A DNA stretch of 40,789 nucleotides from a virus. Below are positions 8,995 through 40,789 of the stretch, one piece after another (position 1 is the first letter of the stretch; each line of letters starts with the position of its first letter). The translations under genes were made by a program, and so were the position numbers. Under the pieces are notes generated by a model. That model did no database searches. It was not told where the DNA came from and saw only the letters and a list, made by a program, of their open reading frames with translations. The DNA lies in IMG/VR virus record IMGVR_UViG_3300028831_000215, positions 1 to 40,789 of that record; one strand, written 5' to 3'.

Positions 8995-9025
8995 CCCCGT
9001 ATACCTACCTACCGGGGGTCTCCTG

Positions 9026-9756: not shown

Positions 9757-9975
9757 GTGCGGGAGCAAGGGAAGGGTTGCGGTGCGCGTCGTTCGATCCA
9801 TATCACGGTCCACGAGTCAACCTACCGGGCGATTGCGGCTGTTGCTGCTGCTAAGGCGTATCGCGGACGCGATGGCCGACCCGGAATCGGAAAAGCATGT
9901 GAGGACCTACTTGAAGTGGCGCTCCTCGCTGCGGAAACCTGGAAAGAAACAGAGGTAAGATCCACACGTAGGTGA
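9757..9975 (+). CDS. Ribbon-helix-helix (CopG/Arc-like) regulator, putative
   Basis: SIHITVHESTYRAIAAVAAAKAY...IGKACEDLLEVALL fits a strand-helix-helix pattern. It is the first rightward gene. Confidence 0.5.
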   Translation: MREQGKGCGARRSIHITVHESTYRAIAAVAAAKAYRGRDGRPGIGKACEDLLEVALLAAETWKETEVRSTRR

Positions 9976-9997
9976 CCAGGGATGGTTAGGAGGCTGA

Positions 9998-10210
9998 GTG
10001 CGCCATCCCTGCGCCAAACGGCTATTGCTCCTCATGACCCGGTTCGACCTGCAACGGGGAGAACTGGAATTGACCTTGGCCCAGCTCCTGGACGAGCACG
10101 AATCCATGCGTAGGCTGGGGCTACATAACCCCGAGGTCACAAGAATGCTCAAGCACACCGAGGTAGCCTTGAGGCAAGTGGCCCTCTACCTGGGATTGGA
10201 TGTGGAATGA
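9998..10210 (+). CDS. Hypothetical protein (70 aa)
   Basis: AGGAGG lies 4 nt before the GTG. ORF track. Confidence 0.55.
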   Translation: MRHPCAKRLLLLMTRFDLQRGELELTLAQLLDEHESMRRLGLHNPEVTRMLKHTEVALRQVALYLGLDVE

Positions 10211-10434
10211 GAAAGCTGGGGGATCTCGGGGCGCTCCTGATCGCGCTCATGCTGGCGCTCGGTGTCGTGGGTGGATGCTTGAGGCGGTACGACCTGGCCG
10301 CGAGCGACCGACTGTTTATGAAGATGGATCACGTCACCGGCAAGGCTTGGCTCATGCGCTTCGGTGACCCTCCCTATTGGATCGAAGTGGCCGACACCTC
10401 ATCAGAATCCGCAGCCCCAGACTCAATCCCCTAA
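10207..10434 (+). CDS. Small lipoprotein (75 aa)
   Basis: ATGA coupling. Signal plus lipobox: LIALMLALGVVGGC. Confidence 0.6.
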   Translation: MRKLGDLGALLIALMLALGVVGGCLRRYDLAASDRLFMKMDHVTGKAWLMRFGDPPYWIEVADTSSESAAPDSIP

Positions 10435-10464
10435 AGAAATTCGTACGCCAGCCGAAAATACTTC

Positions 10465-10493
10465 TTGACTCGTTCGCAGCCCACACGTAGAAT
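10465..10493 (+). promoter_or_regulatory. Near-consensus sigma70 promoter: TTGACT, 17-nt spacer, TAGAAT
   Basis: The -35 box is at 10465-10470 and the -10 box at 10488-10493, in a lower-GC intergenic region about 50 nt upstream of the ORF at 10542. Confidence 0.5.
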
Positions 10494-10541
10494 GTGGACG
10501 TTGCAAGTGTAACACGCCAGCCACAAAGGGGGTGAGCAGAC

Positions 10542-10718
10542 TTGAAGGAGCGCCCGAAGCTCTACCTGATCCTCAGTCACGACATCAGAGAGATACTAGA
10601 CAGAGAGGCGAGGCGCAGGGAGGCGGAAGCGGGCGGCAAGTGGACACGGACCCTCGCAGCGGAGGCCCTAATCAGATGGGCCGTCGAGCACATGCAAAGG
10701 TCCGAGACAGTGACTTGA
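10542..10718 (+). CDS. Small ribbon-helix-helix-like protein (58 aa), below the ORF-track cut-off
   Basis: My translation from the TTG: KERPKLYLILSHDIREILDREARRREAEAGGKWTRTLAAEALIRWAVEHMQRSETVT. AAGGGGG lies upstream. I prefer it over the overlapping Arg/Gly-rich ORF 10532..10777. Confidence 0.45.
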   Translation: MKERPKLYLILSHDIREILDREARRREAEAGGKWTRTLAAEALIRWAVEHMQRSETVT

Positions 10719-11028
10719 CCGCCTCCGCACAATGGCGGGCGCAAAACCCGCCAACGGACGGCGTAGAAGGATGTTAGGCTAGTTGACAAAAGAGCGATTC
10801 TGCGTCAGTGTGCGTCAACGCCGAACCTAATATCTCTTATGCGACATCGCTAAGTAGTTGATTGTAAGGGCACTTAGGTAGTTTGACCGAGTGTAGCAGG
10901 CAGCAAAAGGGGCCGCGCCAGACCTTGGGAGGCGACGCGACCCCGGATGACCGAAGCGCCGAAGCGCCCCGTTACTTGCGAACGCTAGCAACGGGCCTCC
11001 GGCAAGTCAATAGGGAGGCTTACCCGTA

Positions 11029-11346
11029 ATGAGCCGAGACCCCAAGTCCTACCGATTCCAGATCAGGGAGCACACAAGAGAAGAGCGCCCCGGCGTGTGC
11101 TGGAACACCTACGGGCGCATCCTCTGGACCGAGAAGAACCCCGTCGATCCGTCCGTCATCAAGCGGTGCAACAAGCTCTGCGAGAAAGCGGACCAGCTCG
11201 CGGAAGAGACGGGCGGGTCCGTGGCGGCTGGCCTGATCGCCACCGAACTCATCTCCATGAACATCCCCAACCCCGATCTATTCGAGGCCGTGTACTTCGT
11301 CTCCCCGCAGCGGCAGTTGACGCTTGTGAAGGGAGGCAAGTCATGA
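11029..11346 (+). CDS. Hypothetical protein (105 aa)
   Basis: AGGGAGG SD before the ATG. ORF track. Confidence 0.6.
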   Translation: MSRDPKSYRFQIREHTREERPGVCWNTYGRILWTEKNPVDPSVIKRCNKLCEKADQLAEETGGSVAAGLIATELISMNIPNPDLFEAVYFVSPQRQLTLVKGGKS

Positions 11347-11699
11347 GCCAGGACCCCTATCTCCCGCCCGGAGTCACCAACGAAATGATCGACCGGGAGG
11401 CCGGAGCCTACGAGCGGCCCGAGCATCCCTGCGATTGCGAAGGGCCGTGCGACTGTGACGGCCCCTGCGAGGAGAAGTGCTGCAAGCAGCCCACGACCCA
11501 GAACTTCACCCCCGGCCCCAAGGCCGTGCATCTGCGCCACGAGAAAGCGCACGCGCACCTGTCGGGACTCCCCGGAGCGAAGTGGCTCCCCTTCCCTCGG
11601 CTCGTGGAAGCACTGCGGGTTTTCGGCTACTCCGAGAATTGGGCTATCGACGTGGCGCGGGAGTGGATGAAGGAGAACTCCAAGCTGGTGCGGCGATGA
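11343..11699 (+). CDS. Hypothetical Cys-rich protein (118 aa)
   Basis: ATGA coupling. MSQDPYLPPGVTNEMIDRE... with HPCDCEGPCDCDGPCEEKCC. Confidence 0.6.
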   Translation: MSQDPYLPPGVTNEMIDREAGAYERPEHPCDCEGPCDCDGPCEEKCCKQPTTQNFTPGPKAVHLRHEKAHAHLSGLPGAKWLPFPRLVEALRVFGYSENWAIDVAREWMKENSKLVRR

Positions 11700-11953
11700 C
11701 ATTGCGAGCCTGCTGCATCCTAGCGGCCCTGTTCTGCTTGGCCATAGTCCTACTGGCCGCGAAGCCTTGGAATGGGAACGGCTACGAGATACGCGGAAAA
11801 GGTGGCGAGTCGCTCATCGTCACCAGGGGAACAGGGCTGAATCCGCTGTTGCTCCATGACGTAATCATCAACGTCCACGATGCCGAGACGAAGCGGCTGA
11901 CGCTTGTGGTGGATCGCGGCGACACGCTCTATGTCGCTGTGATTGCGCGATGA
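11696..11953 (+). CDS. Small exported or membrane-anchored protein (85 aa)
   Basis: ATGA coupling. Hydrophobic N-terminus: ACCILAALFCLAIVLLAA. Confidence 0.55.
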   Translation: MTLRACCILAALFCLAIVLLAAKPWNGNGYEIRGKGGESLIVTRGTGLNPLLLHDVIINVHDAETKRLTLVVDRGDTLYVAVIAR

Positions 11954-12690: not shown

Positions 12691-12843
12691 ATCGGATTGC
12701 GGGGGCGGCGGGGCGCAAGGCACTTTGCGGGAAGGGTCGAGCGCAGGGGTGGCCTGGAAATCCCGGGTCGCAGGGAGTGACTACCAACCCGTCCGCCCCC
12801 GTAACAACATCCCGTGTTCAAAAATAATGAACGGAGGCAATTC

Positions 12844-13872
12844 GTGAACGAACCTACCTCAATCCAAAGCGCGGCGGCTTCCCCGACCGTGACCCCCAGC
12901 ACCCAGGGGGCCGCTGCGCCGTCTACAGGCATCATGTCGGGCTTCAACGATATCCAACGCATGGCGAAGGCCGTTGTCTTCTCCAGGCTCTTCCCTTCCA
13001 TCCAGAACGAGGCCCAGGCCATCACCCTCATGCTGATTTGCCAGGCCGAGGGCTTGCATCCGGTGGAAGCCTTGCGCCACTACGACATCATCCAGGGCAG
13101 AGCGGCCATGAAGTCGGAGGCGATGCTGGCGCGGTTTCAGTCTCGGGGCGGGACCGTGAAGTGGATCAAGAGCGATGCCACGGAAGCGCGGGCCTTGTTC
13201 TGTTCCCGGGGATGCCCGGAAGGATTCGAGTACGCCTACAGCATGGCGGACGCGACCGTGGCGGGGCTGGCCGGGAAGGACAACTACAAGAAGAACGGGG
13301 CGGCGATGCTCCGGGCTCGGTGCGTGAGTGGCGGTGTCAGGGCCACGGACCCGGGCGCGATCTTGGCGACTTACACGCCTGAGGAAGTTGCGGACTTCGA
13401 GCCGCCCAAGGGAAAGGCAGTGGAGCAGGCACCAGAGGGCGGGGCGCTACAACCGGCGGATCTAGGCACGCCGGATCGAAACGTGGCCCCGCCCCTGGAT
13501 GCCGAACATGAAGAGGTAGACCCCGAGGTCCCGCCAGCTGTGGGGCCCGAGGGAGAAGACGTTTCTTTGGATCGCCTCATGTCCGAAGCTGCGGCGAACC
13601 GAGCCAAGGCCGAGGCTGAGCTGGCATCGCGGCCCATCCCGGTGCCAGCCTTCATTCCGATGCACTGCAACATCTGTAAGGCCCCCGTCAAAGGCTACCG
13701 CTCCGACTCGAAGCAGTTCCCCGGCAGGATCTACTACGGGTGCGAAGCAGCACACGACTTGAAGCTGGAATTCATCAAGGAAGGGCTTACGGCGGCCAAG
13801 GCGAACGCGAAGGTAGCGGGCCATTTCAGGGAGTGGGCGGACAAGTCTACCCCGGCTGAGGTAGAGGCGTGA
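12844..13872 (+). CDS. Single-strand annealing protein (RecT-like) with a C-terminal zinc ribbon, putative
   Basis: The core AQAITLMLICQAEGLHPVEALRHYDIIQGRAAMKSEAMLARFQSRGG resembles phage RecT-type recombinases. The tail has CNICK...YYGCE. GGAGG lies 6 nt before the GTG at 12844. Confidence 0.5.
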   Translation: MNEPTSIQSAAASPTVTPSTQGAAAPSTGIMSGFNDIQRMAKAVVFSRLFPSIQNEAQAITLMLICQAEGLHPVEALRHYDIIQGRAAMKSEAMLARFQSRGGTVKWIKSDATEARALFCSRGCPEGFEYAYSMADATVAGLAGKDNYKKNGAAMLRARCVSGGVRATDPGAILATYTPEEVADFEPPKGKAVEQAPEGGALQPADLGTPDRNVAPPLDAEHEEVDPEVPPAVGPEGEDVSLDRLMSEAAANRAKAEAELASRPIPVPAFIPMHCNICKAPVKGYRSDSKQFPGRIYYGCEAAHDLKLEFIKEGLTAAKANAKVAGHFREWADKSTPAEVEA

Positions 13873-14300
13873 GCGACCGGGACCCGAACGGAAAGGCACC
13901 GTCTGAGGCGGGTGCCAAGCTGGACGCCGGAAAGCTGCGCCCCGGTCTCGTGATCCTTGGATTCTCTCGCGCCCTGGAGGGCGTGGCCGAGGTCGGCACC
14001 TACGGCGCGAAGAAGTACAGCGCCGGTGGCTGGGAGTCCGTGCCCAACGGGGTCGAGCGATACACGGATGCCATGTGGCGGCACTATCTCGCGGAGCGGC
14101 GGGAACTCTTGGACCCGGAGAGCTGGCTTCCCCACGCCGCGCACGCCGCATGGAACTCGCTCGCAAGGTTGGAGCTGATCCTTCGGGCTGACGCGAACCC
14201 GCATTGGCGCTGCGGTGATTGCGGGTCGCCCCCGAAGGGGCTAGGCCGCGACGGGCGCTGCCTGAAATGCAGCAAGCAATTGCTCGACCCAGAGCCATGA
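13869..14300 (+). CDS. DUF5664-like (dATP/dGTP pyrophosphohydrolase N-domain-like) protein with a C-terminal zinc ribbon
   Basis: KLDAGKLRPGLV...ALEGVAEVGTYGAKKY...W...RYTDAMWRHY...DPESWLPHAAHAAWNSLARLE matches my memory of that family. CGDC...CLKC tail. Confidence 0.55.
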   Translation: MSDRDPNGKAPSEAGAKLDAGKLRPGLVILGFSRALEGVAEVGTYGAKKYSAGGWESVPNGVERYTDAMWRHYLAERRELLDPESWLPHAAHAAWNSLARLELILRADANPHWRCGDCGSPPKGLGRDGRCLKCSKQLLDPEP

Positions 14301-23027: not shown

Positions 23028-23534
23028 TCACGGGTTCAGGACTGACTCATCGGGAACTACCTTGAGGGCGTAGGCTAAGGCTTGGACGTGATCGGGTTTC
23101 TTGCCCTTGAAGTCCGCGTGGGGCAGGGCTTGGGTGAACATCTCCCATGTGAGGGGGTTTCCCTGGGCGCGCATCTTCTCTAGCGCGGCGCGGACGTATC
23201 CCCATCCACAGTTGTAGGAGCAGATGGCCCACCGCCAGAGGAGCAAGGGATCATCGAGGAGCCCGTGAAGGTAGAGGGCCACCATGGAATGAAGCTTGGC
23301 GTCGTAGCGTGCAGCCCCTTCGATTGCCTCCTCGGGGTCCAGGGGGTCTCTGACTCCCTCGTCTTTCGCGGTGAGTCCCATGAACTGCATGAGCCCCATC
23401 GCTCCCGCTGAGGAGTGGGCGTCGGGATTGAAGCCCGACTCAGCGAAGGCTTGAGCCTTGAGCATCCTCCATGGGGCTTGGTACTTGATCCCGTACCACT
23501 GAAAGAGCGAATCGTATCGGTCGCTCCATTTCAT
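23028..23534 (-). CDS. Lytic transglycosylase (SLT domain), endolysin or virion lysin
   Basis: AQAFAESGFNPDAHSSAGAMGLMQFM carries the catalytic ES...GLMQ signature. Confidence 0.8.
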   Translation of the reverse strand: MKWSDRYDSLFQWYGIKYQAPWRMLKAQAFAESGFNPDAHSSAGAMGLMQFMGLTAKDEGVRDPLDPEEAIEGAARYDAKLHSMVALYLHGLLDDPLLLWRWAICSYNCGWGYVRAALEKMRAQGNPLTWEMFTQALPHADFKGKKPDHVQALAYALKVVPDESVLNP

Positions 23535-27875: not shown

Positions 27876-28214
27876 CTACCTGAGTGCGATGACGGCCCAG
27901 GTGTATGGAACGGTGCAGCGGAAGGCAACGGTGTCGCGGGAGAATGGTGCAGGGGTGTCCGTGTAGATCGTTCCGGGTCGCGCTCCAGCCGTGGGAGAAT
28001 GAATCCCCGTCTCGACAATCGTCCACGTCCTGGGAACCGACCCCAGGTTGTGCCGTGTCGGAGTCAGGGTGTCATAGGCTCCGGTAACGGGGCCGAACTT
28101 GATGTAGACGTGGACCTCCTTGAACTGCCCCATCGTTCGGGAGTCGTAGGTCCGTCTTTTGGGCAGCGCCACAGCCCCGGGATTGATGTCTCTCGATGTG
28201 ACGGTCTTGATCAT
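27876..28214 (-). CDS. Hypothetical beta-rich structural protein (112 aa)
   Basis: ATGA overlap with the upstream stop at 28211-28214. Confidence 0.5.
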   Translation of the reverse strand: MIKTVTSRDINPGAVALPKRRTYDSRTMGQFKEVHVYIKFGPVTGAYDTLTPTRHNLGSVPRTWTIVETGIHSPTAGARPGTIYTDTPAPFSRDTVAFRCTVPYTWAVIALR

Positions 28215-30640
28215 CCCGGCTGCTTCCTTCGGGTCTTCTTCCCGTGGAGGAAGGCCGAGAACACGTAGGCGTTCCGCTCCAATGAAGCGGTCACGTTGGC
28301 GGTACACCTGAGATTGATCGCCGCGCATCCCGTTCCCGAAGTCGAGAAGCGGGACACGTAGGAGGTCAGGGTGTCGCTATCGTCCCCCGTGGGGCTCGCG
28401 GCCAGGACCGGCTTTTCCCCGATGGCCAGGGTCGTATTGACCGAAGTCGCCAGAGACCCCAATCCCAGGGTGTCCAGTTCCCAGAGTTCGGGGACCATGA
28501 GTTCCGCCTTCCAGGGGCCGTAGGGAACCTCCCAGAGGCATTGCATGGTCGTGCCGTCGTCATTGATTCCGGCTTCCCCGAACCAGACCGCAAGGTCCGT
28601 GGTAGCTCCGCCCCAGCGATGCCGCCCGTAGACCGGGGCCAAGCGCCCCTCGTAGTCCGTCCCGTGCGGCCAGCGCACCGAGCAGATCGGCTGCATGTAG
28701 TCTTTCTCCGAATTGGAGAACGTGGTCTTGCTCCACTCCCCCGTTCGGAGCGAATAGAAGTACTTGGTGAAGAGGTTCCCATAGAGGGCCGAGGGCCACT
28801 GATTGGCGAAGGCCGACCCCCTATCTTGCGGGATCAGCTCCAGCTCGTAGCCGAAGTCGTACCCCACCCCGCGAGACATGCCGTGAACCAAGGTGGAGCA
28901 GTTCTCCAGTCTCACGGGCCAGCCCAGAGGTTGGGGCGGGTTCACTCCATCCCACATCATGGGGCCAGCCTCGGAGAGCCAGAACAAGACCCCGTGCGCC
29001 ACCACAATCGACCATGGAGCGACACAGCCGATCTCAGGATGGATCGTGATGGGATACCAGTCGTCGGGGGTTTCCAAGCCCGCGATGCCGTACATGGCCC
29101 GCTGCGTGAACACCACGGCCATGTCCGCGTAATCCGCCATCCCCGTGACTTCATCTCCGCCCCCGGTCGTGAAGTCCTGGAATCCCGAGTCCGACAAGGT
29201 ATCGAAGGCTTCATATTCCCCGGGGAGGGAGGGCCACACGCGAGAGGGGGTGCCGCGCCCGTTCGCCAGGAGAAGGCGATTCTTGTGGAACAACATGAGC
29301 TTCGCGTTCCGGGGAGGGGTCCGGTCCCGGGTGTCCAAGTTGACGAGCGGGGAGATCAAAGGCAGGTTCTGCCAGTCCTGGTATCCCACGTTCCCGATTC
29401 CGTTCACCGGGTAGGTACCGTCCCCGGGCTGGCGGAACACTTGGGCAATCAGGTAGGCGGGAACCGAATCGTAGAAGGCCGTGGAAGCGCCCGTGAGATC
29501 CCAGGTGCGGTAGATGAAGAAGCAGTCCACGATGCCCGAATCGTAGAGAGCTAAGTCCGCAGGGTCGATGTTCAGGTTGACCCCGAATGGAGCGCCCGAA
29601 GTGAAGGTCCCGATCTTGGTGGGCGGAGACTGTCCCCAGGCCCCTGCCGGTCCGTACCCGTAGGTCACGTAATAGGTGTAGGTCCCGGCGGGGACGTTCC
29701 CGGCGCTCACGGCTCCGGTGATGGTGCCCCCGGGCTTCGTGAACCCGATGGTGGCCGCTAGATTCTGATCCCCCTGATATCGGCGTTGCACCTGCCCGTT
29801 GGTCCAGTAGGCGACACCGTTATGGGAGGCGATGGAGACGGGGGAATCGTTGCCCGCGTCCAAAGCCGATACCCCGTCCGCGACGGCCCACTTGGTCTGT
29901 AGGGGAGGAGTGTTCTCCGAGGCGAACCGCCAGAGTTTCGCGGTGGTCGGGCTTGACAGCGAATTGCTCGTTGAGACCAGCGTCACGGTACGGGCCGGGA
30001 AGTCTCCCGTGATCTGAATCCCGTAGTTGCGAGGCGCAATCGGCCCGCCCCCGACCGCTGTGATCTCCGCGTAGACCGCGTAGCCGTAGTAGCCCGAGAC
30101 GAAATTACCCCCCCAATCCGAGGGCGGAGAGAATCGGATCGGGCGCTCCCCCAAGGCCGTGAACTGCTCCGTCACTCCGGGGAGGGTTTGCGCGGCACCG
30201 TTCGTGTCGAGGTACTTCCAGGCAATCGTGCAGTTGGTGTTGATGCGCCCGATCTGCGGGGTGAAGATCGAGAACTTGCCCGCCGGAGAGATGACGTAGA
30301 ACCGCTCTCCCACCGCCGCTGTGCTGAACAGAACGAAATACGCTTGCTGGGAGATGTCTTCCGAGAAGGCTCCCGCAGCCGTTCTCCGGAGCAACACGGG
30401 CCAGGAAGATCGCATCTGATGCCCGCCCGTGACCATGGACGTAGCACTCGATCCCACGAGGGGAGAAGCAGCGGTCCACGTTCCTCCGGTGGGCGCGGGC
30501 TTCTTCACTCCCGCACGGATTCGGAGGCCGCCTTCGGGGGTCGTGCGAAGGTTCTCCAGATCCGCAAGCCGCTGGGGGTCCTCTTCCAGGGTCTTCCGGG
30601 TCCAGAGCCCCTTGAATTGCTGTAGCGCGTTCAGGAGCAC
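28211..30640 (-). CDS. Tail tubular B / nozzle-like protein (809 aa), putative
   Basis: About 800 aa, following a roughly 240-aa adaptor-like gene as in podovirus tails. No motif-level proof. Confidence 0.45.
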   Translation of the reverse strand: MLLNALQQFKGLWTRKTLEEDPQRLADLENLRTTPEGGLRIRAGVKKPAPTGGTWTAASPLVGSSATSMVTGGHQMRSSWPVLLRRTAAGAFSEDISQQAYFVLFSTAAVGERFYVISPAGKFSIFTPQIGRINTNCTIAWKYLDTNGAAQTLPGVTEQFTALGERPIRFSPPSDWGGNFVSGYYGYAVYAEITAVGGGPIAPRNYGIQITGDFPARTVTLVSTSNSLSSPTTAKLWRFASENTPPLQTKWAVADGVSALDAGNDSPVSIASHNGVAYWTNGQVQRRYQGDQNLAATIGFTKPGGTITGAVSAGNVPAGTYTYYVTYGYGPAGAWGQSPPTKIGTFTSGAPFGVNLNIDPADLALYDSGIVDCFFIYRTWDLTGASTAFYDSVPAYLIAQVFRQPGDGTYPVNGIGNVGYQDWQNLPLISPLVNLDTRDRTPPRNAKLMLFHKNRLLLANGRGTPSRVWPSLPGEYEAFDTLSDSGFQDFTTGGGDEVTGMADYADMAVVFTQRAMYGIAGLETPDDWYPITIHPEIGCVAPWSIVVAHGVLFWLSEAGPMMWDGVNPPQPLGWPVRLENCSTLVHGMSRGVGYDFGYELELIPQDRGSAFANQWPSALYGNLFTKYFYSLRTGEWSKTTFSNSEKDYMQPICSVRWPHGTDYEGRLAPVYGRHRWGGATTDLAVWFGEAGINDDGTTMQCLWEVPYGPWKAELMVPELWELDTLGLGSLATSVNTTLAIGEKPVLAASPTGDDSDTLTSYVSRFSTSGTGCAAINLRCTANVTASLERNAYVFSAFLHGKKTRRKQPG

Positions 30641-31356
30641 TAGTTGTTCCAGTCCGTGTCGTCCACGGTGTAGTCCATGTCGTCGATCACGGGAGCCGCC
30701 TCATCTTCGGTCTCAGGCTCCGCCGAATCTCGGGCGCGTTGCTTGGCCAGTTCCCAGGACTTCGCGCAGAGTTGGGCGAGGACCGCCTGCTGTGGGTCCA
30801 TGATCGCCATCCGCATCCGCGCTTTCATCTCCGCGTAGTCCTTGCAGGCGTCCATCCAGACTTCCGTCAGTTCCGGCGCTTGCCCTCCATCGACCATCGT
30901 CTTGGGCATCTGACGGAGGTAGATGAAAAGATCGGGAGCTGTGCCGGTACTGCCGAAGTTCTTGTCCCAGACGATGCCCTTGACCGAGTTCCCGGAGGCG
31001 TCGTTACCGGCCCAGACCGCGTACTTGCTCGGGGTGTCGGAGGTCTGCGTGGTGCGGTCCACGGGGCGCTCCTTGATGTGTCCCATGGGGCGGATGCGCT
31101 TCTGGACGTTGGAACGCCTCAAGTCGATACGAACGATCTTGATGAAGTCAGGGGCGGGCAAAGACATGATCTCGACGTTCGCCTGACTCGTGCCCTGGAA
31201 ACAGGTCTTGAGAATCGGCCCTTCCATGGCGAGCGTGCGAGCGGCCTCGGAAAGCCAGGTGGCGACCATGGCGCGAGTGAAATGCGCGGGGGTTGCGGCT
31301 GTGGTTCCAACGCGGTCGCAAACGTCGTTGATGCAAGTCGCGGTGTCTTCGGCCAA
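30640..31356 (-). CDS. Head-tail adaptor / tail tubular A-like protein (238 aa), putative
   Basis: Synteny only. Acidic C-terminus. Confidence 0.4.
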   Translation of the reverse strand: MAEDTATCINDVCDRVGTTAATPAHFTRAMVATWLSEAARTLAMEGPILKTCFQGTSQANVEIMSLPAPDFIKIVRIDLRRSNVQKRIRPMGHIKERPVDRTTQTSDTPSKYAVWAGNDASGNSVKGIVWDKNFGSTGTAPDLFIYLRQMPKTMVDGGQAPELTEVWMDACKDYAEMKARMRMAIMDPQQAVLAQLCAKSWELAKQRARDSAEPETEDEAAPVIDDMDYTVDDTDWNN

Positions 31357-31539
31357 CTACTTCCCTCGTTTCTGGGCCATGCGGCGGAAGGTCATGGCAA
31401 GCCGCGCCTCACGAGCGAGCTTCCCGCCCTTCCCTGCGGCGGCCTTTTCCTTGGAGAGCGGAATCTTCTTCCCCTCCGGGACCCCGAGCTTCCGGTGCAA
31501 GGCTCCCTTGTCCATGTGCATCCCCTGAATCCAGTTCAC
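31357..31539 (-). CDS. Small basic protein (60 aa)
   Basis: TAGGAGG lies 8 nt before the GTG. KGALHRKLGVPEGKKIP. Confidence 0.5.
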   Translation of the reverse strand: MNWIQGMHMDKGALHRKLGVPEGKKIPLSKEKAAAGKGGKLAREARLAMTFRRMAQKRGK

Positions 31540-31551
31540 CGCTTTAGCCTC

Positions 31552-32154
31552 CTAGTGCCCTGCGTGCGATAGCCACACTTCCCCTTTGCCGGGAAGCATG
31601 AGATGGATACCGTTGATGTAGCTCGTGGAGTCGGTCTCCCCCACCACGAGACGCGCTCCGAATTTCCGGTACTCCTTGTTCCGCGCCTCCTCAGTGATCC
31701 CAAGAGGCTGTCCCGCGAAGGAGAGCGTGTTTTCGGTGTGGAGCTGGAAGAGCGCCCCGAACCCCGAGGCGTTGTAGTCCGCGCAGAGGAGCGTCCCCTT
31801 GATCTGGAACTTGGCGAACCGGGACCCGTCCGGGAAAAGCGTGAAGGGGTACAGGTAGGTTTCGATGGACCCGTTCTCTTCCACCTCCGCCAGCGTCCCC
31901 TCGGCGTACTTGAGCAAGGGGGTGTAGAAGGAATCGCCCGGGGCCTCAAACGGCATCACGCCCAACGTGGTGTCGGGGTAACCGGGGAGTCCCTTGCAGC
32001 GAAAGACCCACGCCTGGGGCGCGTTTAGCGAGGGCGCTTGGTGCCTGTCTCCACAGGAGACTGCGGGGCGGGCGGGCTGGAGGGCGCGATACGGTACGTC
32101 ATCCCCGCACCCGGAAAGCGAGAGCAGGACCGCTAGCAGAATGGCTTTTCTCAG
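31552..32154 (-). CDS. Lipoprotein (about 200 aa). Start proposed at the CTG at 32154; the first canonical start is a TTG at 31965.
   Basis: The in-frame upstream extension encodes (CTG)RKAILLAVLLSLSGCGDD, a textbook lipoprotein signal with the LSGC lipobox. Confidence 0.65.
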   Translation of the reverse strand: MRKAILLAVLLSLSGCGDDVPYRALQPARPAVSCGDRHQAPSLNAPQAWVFRCKGLPGYPDTTLGVMPFEAPGDSFYTPLLKYAEGTLAEVEENGSIETYLYPFTLFPDGSRFAKFQIKGTLLCADYNASGFGALFQLHTENTLSFAGQPLGITEEARNKEYRKFGARLVVGETDSTSYINGIHLMLPGKGEVWLSHAGH

Positions 32155-32243
32155 AACTTGTCACCGCTCCTCGGAAGAGGTGTATGCTAGGAGACGGAAC
32201 AGAAGTGATGCCGTCTCTAGTCTGGAAAGGTGGGCTGATACCC

Positions 32244-32744
32244 ATGAAATACTTGGTGATTCTCCTGGCGCTGCTGGTCGCGGCCCCGGCTCATGCCATG
32301 TGGGGCCTGACGTTCAGCGCCGTGGCAGACTCCGAAGATCCGCTCTTGGTCGGCTATTCCACCAACGGCTACGCGACTTTCGACTCTGACCCCTACGGAA
32401 CCGTCCCGCCGACCATGACGGACTTCTCTTTCGATTGGGACGGGGTTTCCTGGGATGAGACGAACACTAGCTTCCTCTGGACCCCAGGAGCACGCCCGGG
32501 CCTCACGTTCACGGGCTTGGATGGGCTCAATGCGTTCACGGTCTTCAACACCGGGGACGCTGGCTTCACGTACACCGCTCTGAGGGCGCTTCCGGTCTCG
32601 GGGCCAGTTCAGTACCAGGGGTCGCTAATCAGCTGGGCAGCGTTTTACTACCCCGATCCCATACCGGAACCCTCAAGCGCTCCGCTTCTCGCCTTAGGTC
32701 TGGCGCTCCCCCTGGGATTCCTCGCGGTGCGGAAAATCGCCTAG
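32244..32744 (+). CDS. PEP-CTERM-anchored exported protein (166 aa)
   Basis: Sec signal MKYLVILLALLVAAPAHA. C-terminus IPEPSSAPLLALGLALPLGFLAVRKIA (PEP motif, TM helix, basic tail). Confidence 0.7.
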   Translation: MKYLVILLALLVAAPAHAMWGLTFSAVADSEDPLLVGYSTNGYATFDSDPYGTVPPTMTDFSFDWDGVSWDETNTSFLWTPGARPGLTFTGLDGLNAFTVFNTGDAGFTYTALRALPVSGPVQYQGSLISWAAFYYPDPIPEPSSAPLLALGLALPLGFLAVRKIA

Positions 32745-34732
32745 AAGGGTGTGTTTGGATCTCCGAAGTAGATGTTGAATACCTGATCTTCGTGGTCGGT
32801 CCCGTCCGAAGCCTGGACACCCTGAGTCACGTAGGTTTTGGCCCGGGCGTCATCGTCAGGAGAGACGGGACCGAAGGTGCATCCGACCCTCGCATTGCTG
32901 ATCTTGGTCACCGTGAAGGTGCCGAAGAGCGCCGTCCCCTCGTCGAGCTTCGTGAAGGTGATCGTGTCCCCGTCCAAGTCCACGCAATCCGCTAGGTACT
33001 GGCTGATGGGCGCATGCCCCACGTAGTTCGACATCGGAGAGTAGAAGTACCGAAGGAGCGTCATGTGCGGCGCTCGGTTCACGTTGTTCACCGTGACCGT
33101 TATCGTCTTCTGGTCCGTGAGTAGCCCCGGGTCCGTGGCCTGGGTCACGACGCTATACGTTCCAGAGTCCCTGAAATTCGGGGCCAGGTGGATGTTCCCC
33201 GTCGCCGTTCCTGATCCCGGGTCGGTCGTAGTCACCGCAGCGAAGCTTGGCCCGGAGACGAGAGAGAAGAAGAGAGGGTCCAAGTCAGCGTCCGTGGCGC
33301 TCAGGGCAACGTCCGTCTGCGCCCCTTCGTTCATGGTCTGGTTCGACGGTTGAGTCAGAGACGGAGACCGGGGCACGTCCGAGACGGTGACGAGCATCGT
33401 CTGATCGTTCGTGAGCGACCCGTCCGAGACGCGCACGGTCGTTGAGACGGACCCCGCGTCAGTGTATCCCGGGGCCAGATGGATATTCCCGGTGGCGGTC
33501 CCCGTCCCTCCTGCCGTGGTCGTTACCGTCATGTACGTGGGGCCGGATTGCTTCGAGAAGGTGAGCGATTGCCCGTCCTGATCCGTAGCGGAGAGGGATT
33601 GGTCCGCTGTGGCGTTTTCGTTCACGGTCATGCTGGTAGGAGTGGCCAGCACCGGGGCCACGTTGGTGTTCAGCTTGAATTTGTTGCTGACCGAGCCGTT
33701 CCGGTCGATGACGTAGACGTACTTCCCGGTGAGAGAAGCGAAGGCCCCTTGGTTCGCAGTGATCTTGATGGAGTCTCCGCTGGACTTCCAGAATGTCGCC
33801 GGTTGGATCTCCCGCTGGGTGCAGTTCACGTAGGCCGAGTCGTTCCCAATCTCGACGTGGGCGCGTGTCGTGTCCACGTAGGTGTCTTCCCAATAGGTGT
33901 AAGTCGGGTTTAGCGTGTTCTGGGGGCAGGATGAGATGCCATAGTGCGCGACGAAGTTCCCGAAGAAGACAGTATCCCAATATCGTGAGTCGGCCCGGGT
34001 TTGAACGTTGGCGCTTCGATTGATTGAAGTCGTGTCGTCGATGGTCAGTATCTCGGTGCCGTCCGCCACCCCCGGCGAGGATTGGGCCATGTAGGCTTGA
34101 ATGTGCCGCCAGTGGTTCGCGAAGAAGACGGACCCCCGCCAGGGGGAGGCGGGAAGGAGTAGCGGCGTTCCGCCCCCATCGGAGCCGAGCCGTGCGCCGT
34201 CCGTATCTTGGAAGCAGTAGATGTTCAGGTATTGATTCGGCTGCTGGGTGCTCGCGAAGTCCGCGTGAATCCGAAGAAGCTTCACGTTCCGGGACTCCGG
34301 CGTGGCGGGCGCATAGTTGACCCAGGTGTCGATGTAGAGCACCGGCAGTCCTGGAGCGGGCACGCTGGCGATGCCGAAGTTGGAGGAGTAGTTGCAGCCC
34401 TCGTCGCCGCAGTTCAGAAGATTGTCGAATCGCGCCTGGGCGCTCCTCGTGGAGTTGGTGCGGGTCACGCTGCTGGAGTAGATCGGATAGAGGCCGTGGT
34501 TCGTTCCTGCCCCGTTCTTAGAGAGCGTCCAGCCGTTCCCGATGTTCTGCCCCAAGGTTCCGCCCTCGAACGTATCGAACTTGACCGGGGCCGCGACTCC
34601 CTTGGTCCCGAACCCCGTTCCCACAATAGTCAGGCTGTTCCCGTTCCCGATGACCCCGGAAACGCTCGTGATCTGGGGCGCAGCATGGACCGAAGACGCG
34701 CAAAGCAGTAACGCCAGTAGGAACCGCTTCAA
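32741..34732 (-). CDS. Secreted multidomain protein: signal peptide, IPT-like domain, ConA/lyase-like domain, two or more cadherin-like repeats
   Basis: TTGA-coupled TTG at 34732 gives KRFLLALLLCASSVHA/APQ. There is a tandem repeat with ...SATD.D...TGTATGNIHLAP... Confidence 0.65.
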   Translation of the reverse strand: MKRFLLALLLCASSVHAAPQITSVSGVIGNGNSLTIVGTGFGTKGVAAPVKFDTFEGGTLGQNIGNGWTLSKNGAGTNHGLYPIYSSSVTRTNSTRSAQARFDNLLNCGDEGCNYSSNFGIASVPAPGLPVLYIDTWVNYAPATPESRNVKLLRIHADFASTQQPNQYLNIYCFQDTDGARLGSDGGGTPLLLPASPWRGSVFFANHWRHIQAYMAQSSPGVADGTEILTIDDTTSINRSANVQTRADSRYWDTVFFGNFVAHYGISSCPQNTLNPTYTYWEDTYVDTTRAHVEIGNDSAYVNCTQREIQPATFWKSSGDSIKITANQGAFASLTGKYVYVIDRNGSVSNKFKLNTNVAPVLATPTSMTVNENATADQSLSATDQDGQSLTFSKQSGPTYMTVTTTAGGTGTATGNIHLAPGYTDAGSVSTTVRVSDGSLTNDQTMLVTVSDVPRSPSLTQPSNQTMNEGAQTDVALSATDADLDPLFFSLVSGPSFAAVTTTDPGSGTATGNIHLAPNFRDSGTYSVVTQATDPGLLTDQKTITVTVNNVNRAPHMTLLRYFYSPMSNYVGHAPISQYLADCVDLDGDTITFTKLDEGTALFGTFTVTKISNARVGCTFGPVSPDDDARAKTYVTQGVQASDGTDHEDQVFNIYFGDPNTPF
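33071..33661 (-). repeat. Two tandem cadherin-like / Ig-like domain repeats of about 97 aa inside the secreted protein
   Basis: Amino acids 382-477 and 478-578 of the ORF-track translation align: LSATDQDG/LSATDADL, GTGTATGNIHLAPGY/GSGTATGNIHLAPNF. Confidence 0.7.
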
Positions 34733-35238
34733 TGGACGAACCTCACTTTGTAGGTGCCCCCGCCAGCGTCCGGGTCCGCCGCAGCTCCGGCGATCTGGGT
34801 CCAACGCACTGTGACCGTGTTCGCCGCCGAGACAAACGCCGTGAGGACGTAGTTCGCTCCAATCGTGACCGGAGCGCCCACGATGGGCTGATCCCCCAAG
34901 GCTGCTCCCGTGACCGTGATCGTGAGATCCACGGACCCTGGAACCGCCCCGGGAGCGCCGAAGTTCAACGTGGCCGAATTGCCGCTAATCAGGGGCACTA
35001 GAGTCCCGCCCACGTAGATGCCCTTGTTGGCGCGGAGCGTGTCGTTGTAGATGCCCTTGCCCCAGACAATGAGGTCCCCGGAGCGGAACGGCCCTTCCGT
35101 GCTGATCGAGTCCGAGGCGTGGAGTTTCCCTACCACGTCCGCGTTCCCGGTCACATTCAACCCGTCTCTGACACTCCATCCCAGAGCGACAACAAGAAGC
35201 GCCCCCAGGACGATTCCCTTAGCGAAAGCGCGTCTCAA
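34729..35238 (-). CDS. Membrane-anchored or exported beta-rich protein (169 aa)
   Basis: TTGA coupling. N-terminus MRRAFAKGIVLGALLVVALGW. Confidence 0.55.
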   Translation of the reverse strand: MRRAFAKGIVLGALLVVALGWSVRDGLNVTGNADVVGKLHASDSISTEGPFRSGDLIVWGKGIYNDTLRANKGIYVGGTLVPLISGNSATLNFGAPGAVPGSVDLTITVTGAALGDQPIVGAPVTIGANYVLTAFVSAANTVTVRWTQIAGAAADPDAGGGTYKVRFVH

Positions 35239-36566
35239 TTGTTGCTCCTCCCTATCTCGATCCAGTTGCCGGAGACTCGTACCAAGGTGATCGTTTCGTT
35301 CGGGACGTAGAGAAGATTCCCGTTCAGGTTCAATCCCGCGTTGTCGTCCACCATCCCGTTCGTCGCCGCCGTCCCCGTGAACATGAGCGTGATGATCGTC
35401 CCGTTTGTCCGGGTGCTGATGGAGGTGATGTCCGCCGTGCCGGTAACCCGGAAGACGTTCCCCGTGGGAAGGGTGACGGAGGCGGTCGAGGCGATGTCCG
35501 TCCCTTGGAGGTAATTGCTGCTCCCCGTCGCCGCGTAGTTACCGGTGATGTTTCCGGCCAGATCAATCGAGGCGACCGAGACATCGGACCCGTTTCGGAT
35601 ATCGAGCACCGGGGCTGTCTGGGAAACCTTCCCTTCGACCACGAGCGTGGGAGAGGCGATGGAGGTCGAGATACCGGACTTGACGGTGACGATGGGGGCA
35701 CCGGAGGGAGTCAGCGAAACCCCGCCCGCTCCCCAGAACTTGTGGGAGCCGGTCTGGATGCCGTTTACGAAGTTCGTTCCGGTGGAGTAGGCAAGGCCAG
35801 TGGTCTGCCCCTGCCCCAAGAACTGGATCGAGGAGCCGCGAATGATTGCGTCCGTGCCCAGGAAGAGGCTCGCAGTGCCTGAGTTCGAGAGATCGGCGTA
35901 GCCCCTGAGGAGCAAGAACCCCAGCGCGTTAAAGCTCGTCCTGGACGATCCTAGGAGGGTCTGCCCGTCTGTACGCCCTGCCAGGACCGCAAGCCCTACG
36001 GTATCCGCCGAGGCCAGAGACCCGCCGCAATCCCACTCCCCGTTGATCCGTTCCGCGAAGGTGCCCGATCCCCCACCCGTACAAGGGAGAGAGAACTTGA
36101 GGCAGTCCGAGCAGTAGCGGATCGTCCCGTCGATATCTGCGGGGAGGGAGGCTAGGGTGTGCTGGTCTACCTGGACCGAAGTCCTAGCGTGGGCGATGTC
36201 CGCCGAGGCGGTCCCTACAACATCGGTGCCCGAGGAGTCGGCACGGAAGACACGAGACCCGCCCGCCCAGGACTCAAACGGAGGGCCAACGACGCGGTAG
36301 GCGTCGTATCGCTGCCAGATGTAGCAGGCCCCGGAGCGATAGGGAGGAAGGGACTGTCCTTCGAGACCCGGCCCGATCACGGTCAGCCCCGTGGGGGTTG
36401 TGTACGTGTCCGCCGAGAGAATCCCCGCCGTGGTGCCGTCGTAGTTCTTTCCGGCAAAAGTCCCCGGAATCCATGAATAGACGGCCCCGTATCCCGTGAA
36501 GGCGGCTTGAGAAGGCGCGGCCCAGAGGGAAAGGGCGAGGAGGAGGCAGGCTAGGCGTCTACGCAT
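35235..36566 (-). CDS. Secreted beta-rich, fibre-like protein (443 aa)
   Basis: Classical Sec signal MRRRLACLLLALSLWAAPSQA/AF. The G/T/S-rich body resembles fibre or adhesin proteins. Confidence 0.6.
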   Translation of the reverse strand: MRRRLACLLLALSLWAAPSQAAFTGYGAVYSWIPGTFAGKNYDGTTAGILSADTYTTPTGLTVIGPGLEGQSLPPYRSGACYIWQRYDAYRVVGPPFESWAGGSRVFRADSSGTDVVGTASADIAHARTSVQVDQHTLASLPADIDGTIRYCSDCLKFSLPCTGGGSGTFAERINGEWDCGGSLASADTVGLAVLAGRTDGQTLLGSSRTSFNALGFLLLRGYADLSNSGTASLFLGTDAIIRGSSIQFLGQGQTTGLAYSTGTNFVNGIQTGSHKFWGAGGVSLTPSGAPIVTVKSGISTSIASPTLVVEGKVSQTAPVLDIRNGSDVSVASIDLAGNITGNYAATGSSNYLQGTDIASTASVTLPTGNVFRVTGTADITSISTRTNGTIITLMFTGTAATNGMVDDNAGLNLNGNLLYVPNETITLVRVSGNWIEIGRSNN

Positions 36567-36810
36567 CGGCACCGATCTCCGTCCAACTCATCTGGTAGAC
36601 GCTCCATTCGGTGGCGCTCCATGGGGTGGCGGAGCACTCCATCCATCCGGGGTCTCCGCCGCTTGCCAGATTCGTGTCGATGACAATCTCTCCCATGGTG
36701 TAGGCGATCTGCTGCCCCAGCCCCGTGGACCCGTCGAGCAACCAGTCGATGGGGATCTCATCCCATTGAATGGAAGTCACCGGGACTTCGGCCCAGCCCG
36801 GAGAACTCAC
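36559..36810 (-). CDS. Hypothetical acidic Trp-rich protein (83 aa)
   Basis: GTGA coupling to the tailspike stop. Confidence 0.5.
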   Translation of the reverse strand: MSSPGWAEVPVTSIQWDEIPIDWLLDGSTGLGQQIAYTMGEIVIDTNLASGGDPGWMECSATPWSATEWSVYQMSWTEIGADA

Positions 36811-38042
36811 TGATCCACGACCGATTCAGCCCAGCCCGGGGGAGAAAGAGCCTCCAGGAGCGACACGGCGGGGTTGTGATCCTCGAACGCGCCGTTTGCG
36901 TCCTGGGGCCAGTTCAGGATTTGCCGGTGCTTGGGGTAGGTCATGTTCTGATTCACGGTGTTGTACTCGAATACAAAGGGGCCGCGAGCGCGGGTCAGGT
37001 ACACTCCGCCCGTGATGTAGTGGTCGATGACCGGCACGGTGTTGAGCGAGATGCCTGAGTCGTAGGTGATCCGCCCGTTGCTGTCGGTGACGGTGTTCAC
37101 GAGCACGTTGCCGAGCACGTCCGTGACCTTGACCGAGATGCCCGCGACCGGGGTCCCGGCAACGTTCTGCACCCTTGGGTCGTAGGCCCAATACTCGGGC
37201 AGGTTCCCGGCAGGGATCGTGGTCGCGGAAGAAAGCTTGGTTCCTCCACTCCACTTCGGCCTGACAAGCTTCCCCGAACCGAACGAGGACACGATCACGA
37301 GATCGGCCACGGAGGGAGCGCCGAAGAAGATCATGTCCCTGAGCGCGAGGGCGCTCTGGTTCGTGAGGCGGAGTTGCGCACCCATGGCGTTTCCGCCGCA
37401 GGTGCCGCGACTCATCAGCGTCGGGTTGAAGATCGAGAAGATGGAAGCGGTGGCCCCGGAAGCGTTCCCCCAGAAATCGCAGTTGTAGAAACTCCCGGTA
37501 GGAGTGGAGCCGGAGCCGAGCCGGATGTTGGTGTTGACGCCCGTTCCCGTCGTTCCGATGATGCAGTCGATGTACTCGCTCGACGCATCCCCGACGATGG
37601 CGAGGAAGTTGTTCACGCCTACGGCGGTGAGCGTTCCGCCGTAGATGTTGTGCCGCTGGGAAAGCGTGGTGGCCGCACCGAAGAAAGCGTGGATTCCGTT
37701 TCGGCCCGTCGCCTCAACCCCGCTCCCGACCTTCTTCCCCCAATTGAGGACGCAGTTGGACCCCACGAAGGAGAGGGTCTTCGTGTTGTCCCAATCGAAG
37801 GTTGCGTCCTGATCGGTCCAGGTGGTGGTTGCCGTACCACCCGTGGAAGACCCCATGAGGACGGTGGCGATGCCCCGGTACTTCTTGGTGTTCCCGGTGT
37901 AGGCGGTCCAGTTGGCCGCTACGTTGGCATCGGTCGAAGCCGCCATCTCAGCGGCGGAGTGGGGTTGTCCGGCAGCATGCCCGCCCGTGATGTCGTTGTC
38001 GTCATACTGGCGGATTTGGGTGCCGGTCCAGGTGTACCCGAT
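36807..38042 (-). CDS. Tailspike / depolymerase-like protein (beta-helix plus CarboxypepD_reg-like domain). Start proposed at the ATC at 38042; the first ATG is at 37946.
   Basis: Repetitive G/N/T-rich, beta-helix-like core. VKVTDVLGNVLVNTVTDSNGRITY. The 32-codon in-frame extension is protein-like and has AAGGGA 10 nt upstream. Confidence 0.6.
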   Translation of the reverse strand: MGYTWTGTQIRQYDDNDITGGHAAGQPHSAAEMAASTDANVAANWTAYTGNTKKYRGIATVLMGSSTGGTATTTWTDQDATFDWDNTKTLSFVGSNCVLNWGKKVGSGVEATGRNGIHAFFGAATTLSQRHNIYGGTLTAVGVNNFLAIVGDASSEYIDCIIGTTGTGVNTNIRLGSGSTPTGSFYNCDFWGNASGATASIFSIFNPTLMSRGTCGGNAMGAQLRLTNQSALALRDMIFFGAPSVADLVIVSSFGSGKLVRPKWSGGTKLSSATTIPAGNLPEYWAYDPRVQNVAGTPVAGISVKVTDVLGNVLVNTVTDSNGRITYDSGISLNTVPVIDHYITGGVYLTRARGPFVFEYNTVNQNMTYPKHRQILNWPQDANGAFEDHNPAVSLLEALSPPGWAESVVDQ

Positions 38043-40063: not shown

Positions 40064-40789
40064 TCACGTAAGGTGCTGAACCGCGAGATCGCGGCCCGTC
40101 GCGCCGTACGTGGTGTTCGAGTGCGCGGACTTAGCGCCCCAATTGCAGTAGGCGTAGACCTTGGTGATCAGGTCCTGCCGGTCCGTCTCGATCTTCGCGT
40201 CGTACTTCTTGCCCCAGACGATGGCCTTCTTCGCGGCCACCAGATTCCGGCGTCCCGAAGACGACAGCACGTTGCCGGTCAGGATGATGTCCCCGCCGTA
40301 GATCGTCGGGATCTTGCCGTTGACCGCAGCGCCCGGACCCGTTCCACGGACCGCAGCGTTCACGATGTCCGGGAAGGAGAGAATCGAGTCCAACTGCGCC
40401 AAGTCATAGATGCCGACGAAGGGGTCTCCATCGGTCATCTTGTCGCGGGCGTTGACCCGGAGACGCCGGAGCGCCAGGAGGAAGTTCGCCAGCGTGAAGT
40501 TGGTGCCCGAGGCCCCCACGTTGTCCGAGGCGTTGAACTCGGAATAGAGGTTCAGGATGTCGATTTCCAAGCCCTGGTAGACCGCTTCCGCCAAAACCGG
40601 GACATAGGCGTCCGCCAAGTTCGACACCGAGAAGTCCATCAGATCGGGCTCGATCGTGATGTTGACGGCCTTCAACGTCTGGGTCAGCGTGATCGCCAGA
40701 GAGGTGATCGACGCAGCCGTGTTGACCGATCCGCCAACGGACCAGGACTTGAGATCCGAGCCCGCCGCCCAGGTGCCGGGGGAGCCCGC
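40064..40789 (-). CDS. Major capsid protein, C-terminal part. It runs into the terminal repeat and continues at 1-327.
   Basis: ORF 40064..40675 stays open upstream to the window end and joins 1-327 in frame. The total is 303 aa. Confidence 0.75.
   Translation of the reverse strand, partial: AGSPGTWAAGSDLKSWSVGGSVNTAASITSLAITLTQTLKAVNITIEPDLMDFSVSNLADAYVPVLAEAVYQGLEIDILNLYSEFNASDNVGASGTNFTLANFLLALRRLRVNARDKMTDGDPFVGIYDLAQLDSILSFPDIVNAAVRGTGPGAAVNGKIPTIYGGDIILTGNVLSSSGRRNLVAAKKAIVWGKKYDAKIETDRQDLITKVYAYCNWGAKSAHSNTTYGATGRDLAVQHLT
40649..40789. repeat. Second copy of the 141-bp terminal direct repeat
   Basis: Identical to 1-141. Confidence 0.95.

Follow-up and report, generated by a model that had tools for sequence, protein, structure and literature searches.

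A Block of Five Genes with Export-Type N-Termini

The IMG/VR virus record IMGVR_UViG_3300028831_000215, analyzed here at its full length of 40,789 nucleotides (the window), carries in its tail region a block of five adjacent genes, A to E, whose products all begin with what appear to be export signals. An earlier description made from the letters of the DNA (the sequence-only reading) had taken this block for a 5-kb island encoding a secretome that remodels the envelope or exopolysaccharide (EPS), or alternatively serves superinfection exclusion or releases a free depolymerase, rather than encoding conventional fibers. The five genes are as follows.

A, 35235-36566, minus strand: spike-like protein of 443 amino acids (aa) with a predicted signal, an N-module and a C-terminal domain
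B, 34729-35238, minus strand: 169-aa protein whose N-terminus is a signal or anchor and whose C-terminal half is immunoglobulin (Ig)-like
C, 32741-34732, minus strand: 663-aa protein with a predicted Sec signal, an N-domain built around a jelly-roll core and, after it, tandem Big_9/Cadherin_4 repeats
D, 32244-32744, plus strand (opposite to the others): 166-aa protein with a predicted Sec signal (residues 1-18) and a PEP-CTERM sorting signal (residues 139-166)
E, 31552-32154, minus strand: predicted 200-aa lipoprotein with a CTG start and a lipobox (LSG/C, Cys16)

Export signals were scored with a strict rule of our own, which calls for a positive n-region, an uncharged h-region of at least 10 residues with a mean Kyte-Doolittle value of at least 2.0, and small residues at positions -3 and -1. 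All five block products pass this rule and none of 20 other structural or packaging genes do (Fisher p ~2e-5); among six-frame open reading frames (ORFs) of at least 60 aa, it is passed by 8 of 264. The five ORFs and their export-type N-termini were thus confirmed as the sequence-only reading had given them, and so was their tail-region location, just upstream of genes for an SU10-type adaptor and a nozzle-like protein. The description of the block as an island did not survive. The G+C content at third codon positions (GC3) of the five ORFs is 0.77-0.82, compared with 0.80 for the portal gene and 0.82 for the large terminase gene; the five ORFs are real and in this respect match the phage's own genes. 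A foreign island was ruled out on the same composition, and A, B, and C fill a slot for variable spikes that is shared with related phages.

Cleavage sites of the AXA type are clear in A, C, and D, while that of B is weaker (ALG/W). Signals recur in the slot proteins of related or module-sharing phages, specifically the contigs designated L030, L001, L004, L063, L065, L066, and L067, and the n-, h-, and c-region architecture is kept together with AXA-type sites in relatives that are diverse in sequence and range from 39% to 67% GC. Because this full architecture persists in diverse relatives and in bacterial homologues, and because signal-less variants start at the predicted cleavage point, we infer that A, B, and C are exported through the Sec pathway.

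A Variable Spike Slot Shared with Related Phages

Searches with C, with A and with an alignment of the nozzle-like protein brought up related contigs. Their layout is shared with the window: a g379-like gene, usually a gene of 68-83 aa, a variable slot, in some a g60-like gene, the adaptor gene and the gene for a large nozzle-like protein. In the window, the genes that frame the slot are these.

g379, 36807-37946, minus strand: conserved gene for 379 aa at the upstream edge of the slot
g83, 36559-36810, minus strand: small conserved gene whose stop codon overlaps the start of A
g60, 31357-31539, minus strand: small conserved gene that borders the slot downstream
g238, 30640-31356, minus strand: head-to-tail adaptor of the SU10 type, assigned by homology
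g809, 28211-30640, minus strand: large virion protein, called nozzle-like because it follows the adaptor

Homologues of g379 (25-44% identical) lie just upstream of the slot in L001, L030, L058, L059, L062, L063, and L065, and g379-like genes are also present in L066 and L067. The g379 product has no signal under the export-signal rule, and its Pfam matches are limited to weak ones to beta-sandwich families. The products of g83 and g60 are each 55% identical to those of L030 genes (82 and 60 aa, respectively), and the L001 gene at the g60 position has a weak DUF6496 match. The adaptor assignment of g238 is indirect, as the protein itself has no direct Pfam match: it is 67% identical to an L030 protein and 26-32% identical to those of L001 and L058 (2e-23 and 1.7e-18, respectively), and the latter two score 51-54 bits with PF24175 (SU10_adaptor; cut-off 27). 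The g809 protein, which is kept in all relatives and is 58% identical to its L030 counterpart, matches PHROG 3287 and 511 (virion structural protein and internal virion protein) with E ~1e-7. Sequence searches of the PDB with the nozzle profile, A and g379 returned nothing meaningful.

Between these fixed genes the content of the slot changes from phage to phage.

Window: A, B, C, D, and E
L030: the 628-aa protein P0092 and a 64-aa gene
L001, L063, and L065: a signal-less beta-helix spike, a signal-bearing B-like protein, and a signal-bearing C-like or beta-helix/cadherin protein
L004 (38.6% GC): proteins of 974, 173, and 580 aa, all three with signals
L058, L059, and L062, more distant relatives: one signal-less spike of 519-626 aa

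The spike of L058 matches the Beta_helix family at 34.7 bits (cut-off 25.9), and P0092, which bears a signal, is the one large slot protein of L030. L066 and L067, both from IMG/VR, have an A-type signal and N-module fused to a B-like C-terminal domain directly after the g379-like gene; these two contigs have a capsid-like gene in common with L004 and not with the window. Throughout, the slot proteins combine conserved end domains with swapped middles. In L004 (Logan accession SRR29078109), the signal-bearing genes are consecutive (6541-9465, 9477-9998, and 10001-11743), and domains of their products are 40-49% identical to spike domains of phages at 59-67% GC (L001, L030, and the window); hosts that differ widely in base composition seem to have spike modules in common.

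The best explanation of the block is that it represents a hypervariable spike cassette of the tail region, with receptor-binding or depolymerase genes. Overlaps of start and stop codons at g83/A, A/B, and B/C link the three genes with the late structural operon; A, B, and C are taken as predicted spike- or fiber-like proteins translationally coupled to it, although no known particle-attachment domain was detected in any of them. The sequence-only reading had asked whether relatives carry the block at the same locus, and the answer is divided: A-, B-, or C-like sets do occupy the slot, but D and E are absent from it.

The Spike-Like Proteins A, B, and C

Protein A begins with MRRRLACLLLALSLWAAPSQA/A, and its predicted Sec signal comprises residues 1-21 (36504-36566). 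There follow the N-module (residues 22-120, 36207-36503; about 95 residues), a variable center, and a C-terminal domain of about 100 residues (residues 340-443, 35238-35549) that is common to other slot spikes. The N-module is 59% identical to that of P0092 and 34% identical to an L004 protein, and the C-terminal domain is 39-40% identical to those of the signal-less spikes of L058 and L059. The signal-less spike of L062 starts where mature A would start. A HMMER scan of 1.84 billion representatives recovered 863 relatives of A at E<=1e-3, about a third of the long ones passing the signal rule; among the 17 that align to its N-terminus, 14 pass and two more are signal-like by eye. The ATG of A overlaps the TAG of g83 in the junction ATGCGTAG. 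A motif, LLWA, recurs just before the cleavage region in A-family signal peptides (alignment A7; 36504-36566 in the window), and this is more sequence conservation than export alone requires.

Protein B, with the N-terminus (TTG)RRAFAKGIVLGALLVVALG/WS, starts at a TTG that overlaps the stop of A (TTGA) and is preceded by GGGAGGAG. Its matches to TIG/IPT (0.0011) and ZirU (0.0093) are weak, and over 147 aa it is 43% identical to a 173-aa protein of L065. The sequence-only reading had classed B as a signal anchor. The alignment of orthologues points the other way: since B-like proteins of L004 (SIGYA/QT) and L063 (APAFA/TT) have clear cleavage sites, a cleavable signal peptide is more likely in B than an anchor.

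Protein C likewise starts at a TTG that overlaps the preceding stop, in this case that of B, and reads (TTG)KRFLLALLLCASSVHA/AP, with a predicted Sec signal at residues 1-17 (34682-34732). Its N-domain of about 340 aa is followed at about residues 355-655 by repeats that match Big_9 (1.3e-10) and Cadherin_4 (2.2e-12) in Pfam. An AlphaFold2 model of residues 1-361, built from 21 homologues, reached a predicted local distance difference test (pLDDT) score of 87.5. When about residues 70-300 were compared with the PDB by Foldseek, the matches were jelly-roll proteins, prominent among them polysaccharide lyases (PL) of families PL14, PL36, PL20, and PL7, including the Chlorella virus enzyme vAL-1, together with the TtX122 domain (E 4e-8 to 1e-4, probability 1.0, target TM-score 0.45-0.64). 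Among viral models, there were two whole-domain matches and many ConA/LamG-type phage proteins. The N-domain thus models as a polysaccharide-lyase-like jelly roll. Both parts of the domain assignment made by the sequence-only reading are upheld, the jelly roll by the model, with polysaccharide lyases among its best matches, and the cadherin-like repeats by Pfam. Invariant R, K, H, and Y residues are present in alignment A1, among them R148, K151, R154, H156, and Y285.

In L001, a protein in the same position is 48% identical to C. The N-domain occurs in 25 IMG/VR contigs, mostly with a signal, and in three of these it forms the C-terminal domain of very large proteins; genes around the IMG/VR copies include capsid, portal, terminase, and sheath families. 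Two C-like proteins that lack a signal (L015 and L024) start exactly at the predicted mature end. Bacterial homologues of the N-domain are signal-bearing and about 390 aa long. One of their genes has Wzy on one side and a polysaccharide deacetylase on the other, and its locus also contains the exosortase EpsH/EpsI; at eight further bacterial loci, GT4, GT1, Wzy_C, flippase, deacetylase, and Big_9/cadherin proteins are abundant among the neighbors. This link to signal-bearing proteins of bacterial EPS and exosortase loci suggests where phage modules of this type may have originated.

Two further observations concern the architecture of C. In the bacterial loci L031-L049, genes with C-type N-domains often adjoin those of very large Big_9/Cadherin_4/Cadherin_5 proteins (8 of 66 neighboring ORFs), and in phage C the N-domain and the cadherin-type domains are fused. 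At the other end, the phage-type C-like proteins P0014, P0016, P0039, P0058, and P0080 share a C-terminal tail, C[TSV]P[FL] (seen as CTPF, CTPL, CSPPF, and CVPF), which could be a docking or sorting motif; P0080 has this type of tail with a different N-domain. Window C ends in NTPF (32744-32755), without the cysteine, and homologues of about 390 aa, one of them lying in a bacterial EPS locus, end in ...SPAPVRDLHP...

The Accessory Genes D and E

Gene D is read in the opposite direction to its neighbors; its stop overlaps that of C, and its start faces E across 89 bp. Its product begins with MKYLVILLALLVAAPAHA/M and ends in IPEPSS-APLLALGLALPLGFLAV-RK, comprising a PEP motif, a hydrophobic stretch, and a basic end. 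The match to the NCBIfam PEP-CTERM model TIGR02595 is 17.1 bits (cut-off 16), and that to Pfam PF07589 is 15.9, below the cut-off of 20.7. With the signal rule passed and the TIGR02595 cut-off reached, the Sec signal and sorting signal proposed by the sequence-only reading are borne out. GC3 of D is 0.77. No relative of D was found in IMG/VR, nor a counterpart in any related phage found.

The lipoprotein assignment of E holds in one respect and is weakened in another. Its N-terminus, (CTG)RKAILLAVLLSLSG/C, contains a lipobox that reads LSLSG/C, and three homologues, 50-59% identical over the full length, each have one as well (LCAGC, LVAGC, and LVTGC). What E lacks is a canonical start codon. 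The CTG, at 32154, lies two codons past an in-frame TGA and 12 nt downstream of GAGGAG, and the first ATG, GTG, or TTG (31965) would remove the lipobox; the Joint Genome Institute (JGI) gene call comprises only a 134-aa C-terminal part (P0093). Because the stretch before 31965 is conserved in the homologues, lipobox included, we regard it as coding. E-like genes sit alone between the portal and protease genes of unrelated Mu-like phages. An AlphaFold2 model of E from four sequences was uninformative (pLDDT 40.6).

The best reading of D and E is that they are separate, independently acquired accessory (moron-like) envelope genes, as both are absent from relatives (no counterpart in L001, L030, L004, L063, or L065), E-like genes occur in Mu-like phages and D is on the opposite strand. 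They differ from typical morons in that their GC3 is like that of the rest of the phage and the scan for promoters and terminators gave nothing above chance: no sigma-70-like promoter was found in 31000-37000, where terminator-like sites were at chance level. The divergent gap between D and E contains an inverted repeat, GAGACGG-N13-CCGTCTC (about 32190-32216), with no T-run after it, which could regulate D, E, or both.

Possible Function and Competing Explanations

From the observed genes, signals, genome place, homologies, and fold we infer a function in two parts, to which we give roughly an even chance: a cassette of spike-derived proteins that leave the cytoplasm through Sec and bind or cut the EPS of the host, joined by the two accessory envelope genes D and E. 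Under this scenario A, B, and C would be produced late, coupled to the structural operon, and would cross the inner membrane via the host Sec machinery and take up their fold outside the cytoplasm. Their target there would be an exosortase-linked exopolysaccharide of the host, which they would bind or cut, C acting through its lyase-like jelly roll and cadherin-like repeats and A and B through fiber-like domains, so that the polysaccharide layer of the infected cell would be cleared or blocked before lysis. At lysis the three proteins would be set free, unattached or possibly docked on particles. D and E would probably alter the surface of the infected cell, for instance to exclude other phages. 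Two strands of evidence connect the block with exopolysaccharide, namely the bacterial homologues of C in EPS loci (one with EpsH/EpsI) and the PEP-CTERM signal of D, and in this respect the exopolysaccharide link drawn by the sequence-only reading is retained. The homologue with EpsH/EpsI is also the only hint, and an indirect one, that the host may have an exosortase. The proposed effect on polysaccharide and the parts assigned to D and E are predictions.

Several points weigh against this scenario. In a diderm host a protein with nothing more than a Sec signal would get no farther than the periplasm; to act on polysaccharide at the surface it would need a further step or lysis. Spikes without a signal (L058, L059, and L062) and C-like proteins without one (L015 and L024) exist, and the proteins can therefore work without export, in which case the cassette may be ordinary virion hardware. 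Catalysis by C is putative: the best structural match is TtX122, an X122 domain without known activity, C matches no lyase family by sequence in Pfam or NCBIfam, and its identity to the matched lyases is 9-15%. The case for export is made of sequence features and their conservation, and cysteine content, which might have set exported proteins apart, does not separate signal-bearing from signal-less relatives. In the A family the signal-bearing proteins have the lower content (median 0.84 vs. 1.36 per 100 aa), opposite to expectation, and in the C family conserved cysteines do not follow the presence of a signal. E lacks a canonical start, as described above, and no integrase was found. More generally, every functional step is drawn from uncultivated sequences.

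Among the alternatives, the one that survives best, though we consider it unlikely, is that A, and perhaps B and C, would be exported, shed their signals, reach their fold in the periplasm and dock on finished particles at or after lysis. A sits in the spike slot, its C-terminal domain is common to signal-less beta-helix spikes, and the L062 spike starts at the mature A start; the signal-bearing P0092, moreover, is alone among large proteins in the L030 slot. Virion receptor-binding proteins usually show conserved ends with swapped middles, the C[TSV]P[FL] tail is on phage-type C-like proteins and not on bacterial ones, and in P22 the tailspikes attach in vitro to tail-less particles. Against this, we know of no tailed phage that assembles by export followed by late docking, and our search found none; no docking domain was detected, and g379, which is conserved in all relatives, could be the real fiber. 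If late assembly did occur, the last assembly step would be extracytoplasmic, and the same proteins would strip the polysaccharide of the infected cell from within before release.

The central proposal of the sequence-only reading, in which all five genes form one system for superinfection exclusion or envelope remodeling and the products never enter the virion, is somewhat less probable again. It draws on the adjacency of five exported-type products, on the presence of a lipoprotein beside receptor-binding genes, which recalls T5 Llp and the Cor proteins, and on the exosortase/EPS pathway, toward which D and C each point. Yet the genes do not travel together: A, B, and C belong to the spike slot, relatives lack D and E, Mu-like phages have E-like genes without the others, and D has the opposite orientation. 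There is no sign of lysogeny, PADLOC gave no match for any of the five products, and no exclusion or defense family was matched in PHROG or Pfam (the single match from D and E being the PEP-CTERM match of D). A coherent secretome of five genes is thus disfavored, and superinfection exclusion finds no family match.

Least probable of the three, by a narrow step, is that A, B, and C are ordinary cytoplasmic fibers that follow the usual tail assembly, their hydrophobic N-termini being unused for export or their true starts lying downstream. The spike-slot position, the coupling to the structural operon, and the homology to signal-less spikes would all fit; signal-like N-termini do arise by chance in high-GC ORFs (8 of 264), and the LLWA motif inside the A-family signals might indicate a structural role. 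Opposed to this are the retention of full signal architecture and AXA-type sites in relatives from 39% to 67% GC and the equivalent signals of bacterial C homologues in polysaccharide loci. The starts, too, are fixed by overlap with upstream stops and by Shine-Dalgarno sites, with no alternative start after the signals, and L015 and L024 begin at the predicted mature end, as a removable leader predicts. The contrast drawn by the sequence-only reading with conventional fibers was nonetheless too strong, since A has its C-terminal domain and its mature N-terminus in common with signal-less slot spikes (L058, L059, and L062); A, B, and C are, by these homologies, predicted to be fiber- or spike-derived proteins that gained signals. 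The idea that B and E are spanins was rejected, as B is predicted to be Ig-like and not coiled-coil, E greatly exceeds an o-spanin in size, and both lie away from the SLT gene (23028-23534).

Relation to Known Systems

Textbook accounts place tailed-phage assembly in the cytoplasm and describe depolymerases as virion spikes or as soluble forms freed by lysis. The cassette resembles the tailspike depolymerases of podoviruses (P22 gp9 and those of multi-depolymerase Klebsiella phages) in its place in the tail region, in its conserved ends and swapped middles, and in its beta-helix or lyase-like folds. It also resembles podovirus tailspike cassettes, which have one to three spike genes per phage and vary between relatives. 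Known tailspikes are without a signal peptide and are assembled in the cytoplasm, whereas A, B, and C of the window and many of their relatives have Sec-type signals; furthermore, no N-terminal particle-binding domain was recognized in the latter, and no sequence match to a characterized phage was seen. The jelly-roll lyases (PL7, PL14 including Chlorella virus vAL-1, PL20, and PL36) and the CAZy X122 group resemble C at the level of fold, with the low identities given above.

For the accessory genes, the comparison is with lambda lom and bor, T5 llp, and phi80/N15 cor, which are accessory envelope genes in tail regions. D and E are like these in being small genes for exported proteins or lipoproteins beside receptor-binding genes. 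They have no sequence similarity to them, no promoter or terminator consensus, and a composition like that of the phage.

By analogy, the nearest parallel is WceF of Pantoea stewartii, an enzyme of a bacterial EPS locus that has a tailspike (beta-helix) fold and is exported by Tat (PMC7949094). Like C, WceF bears a signal, and it links exported enzymes of bacterial EPS loci with phage spikes through a shared fold. The two differ in that WceF is bacterial, beta-helical, and Tat-dependent, and C is phage-encoded, predicted to be a jelly roll with a Sec-type signal, and part of a structural operon.

Variable spike cassettes, jelly-roll or beta-helix spikes that act on carbohydrate, and accessory lipoprotein genes near receptor-binding genes are already known. 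The new elements are that spike modules conserve Sec signals and that a tailed phage carries a PEP-CTERM gene. In the searchable literature we found no description of signal-bearing tailspikes and no described phage system of such composition, in agreement with the sequence-only reading; nor was a PEP-CTERM protein of a tailed phage found in the literature searched, where the only viral mention concerns a non-tailed Dehalococcoides element. The signal-bearing, spike-derived set recurs in phage lineages with different capsid genes and DNA of 39% to 67% GC. This would imply either that phages export polysaccharide-acting proteins before lysis or that the last step of virion assembly can occur outside the cytoplasm, and either outcome would change both the recognition of receptor-binding proteins in metagenomes and our view of how phages confront EPS-rich soil bacteria. 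The PEP-CTERM gene, for its part, hints that phages may use the exosortase pathway of their hosts.

The Remainder of the Genome

The two ends of the window are an exact 141-bp direct repeat (1-141 and 40649-40789), because of which we take the genome to be complete, 40,648 bp long, and either circular or terminally redundant. The contig comes from a JGI metagenome, in which P0001 and P0091 are its own proteins. Its capsid gene (40064 onward, minus strand) spans the end-to-end junction, and the minus-strand structural genes run from the capsid region through the five-gene block to the SLT lysozyme. Other features that anchor the genome are as follows.

1998-4118: P22-like portal (Pfam 2.5e-15)
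4136-5623: large terminase (PHROG 2, 1.2e-14)
23028-23534: SLT lysozyme (lysis gene)

The genome belongs to a new, uncultivated, podovirus-like lineage with an SU10-type adaptor. Phages in GenBank gave no DNA or protein match to the block, portal, nozzle, or C domain, and the portal has no relative in IMG/VR; looking up the window's proteins by exact sequence gave no match. Neither an integrase nor a repressor was found, and there is therefore no sign of a prophage setting; the 50 ORFs of the 6.3-22.4 kb region yielded only matches to dGTP_diPhyd_N and DUF7336. The first of these is in a 143-aa product (13869-14300, plus strand) that matches Pfam dGTP_diPhyd_N, the N-terminal domain of dATP/dGTP diphosphohydrolases, at 2.9e-22; the 352-aa ORF that adjoins it upstream (12814-13872, plus strand) has no Pfam match. 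In some phages, dATP/dGTP diphosphohydrolases accompany base-modification pathways.

Export-like N-termini also occur in two small products elsewhere in the genome. One is a 167-aa protein (8162-8665, minus strand) beginning with MRLRVFLAGAILSLAITSAAC, which could be a lipoprotein, and the other is a 75-aa membrane-type protein (10207-10434, plus strand) beginning with MRKLGDLGALLIALMLALG; both might be products of lysis or envelope genes.

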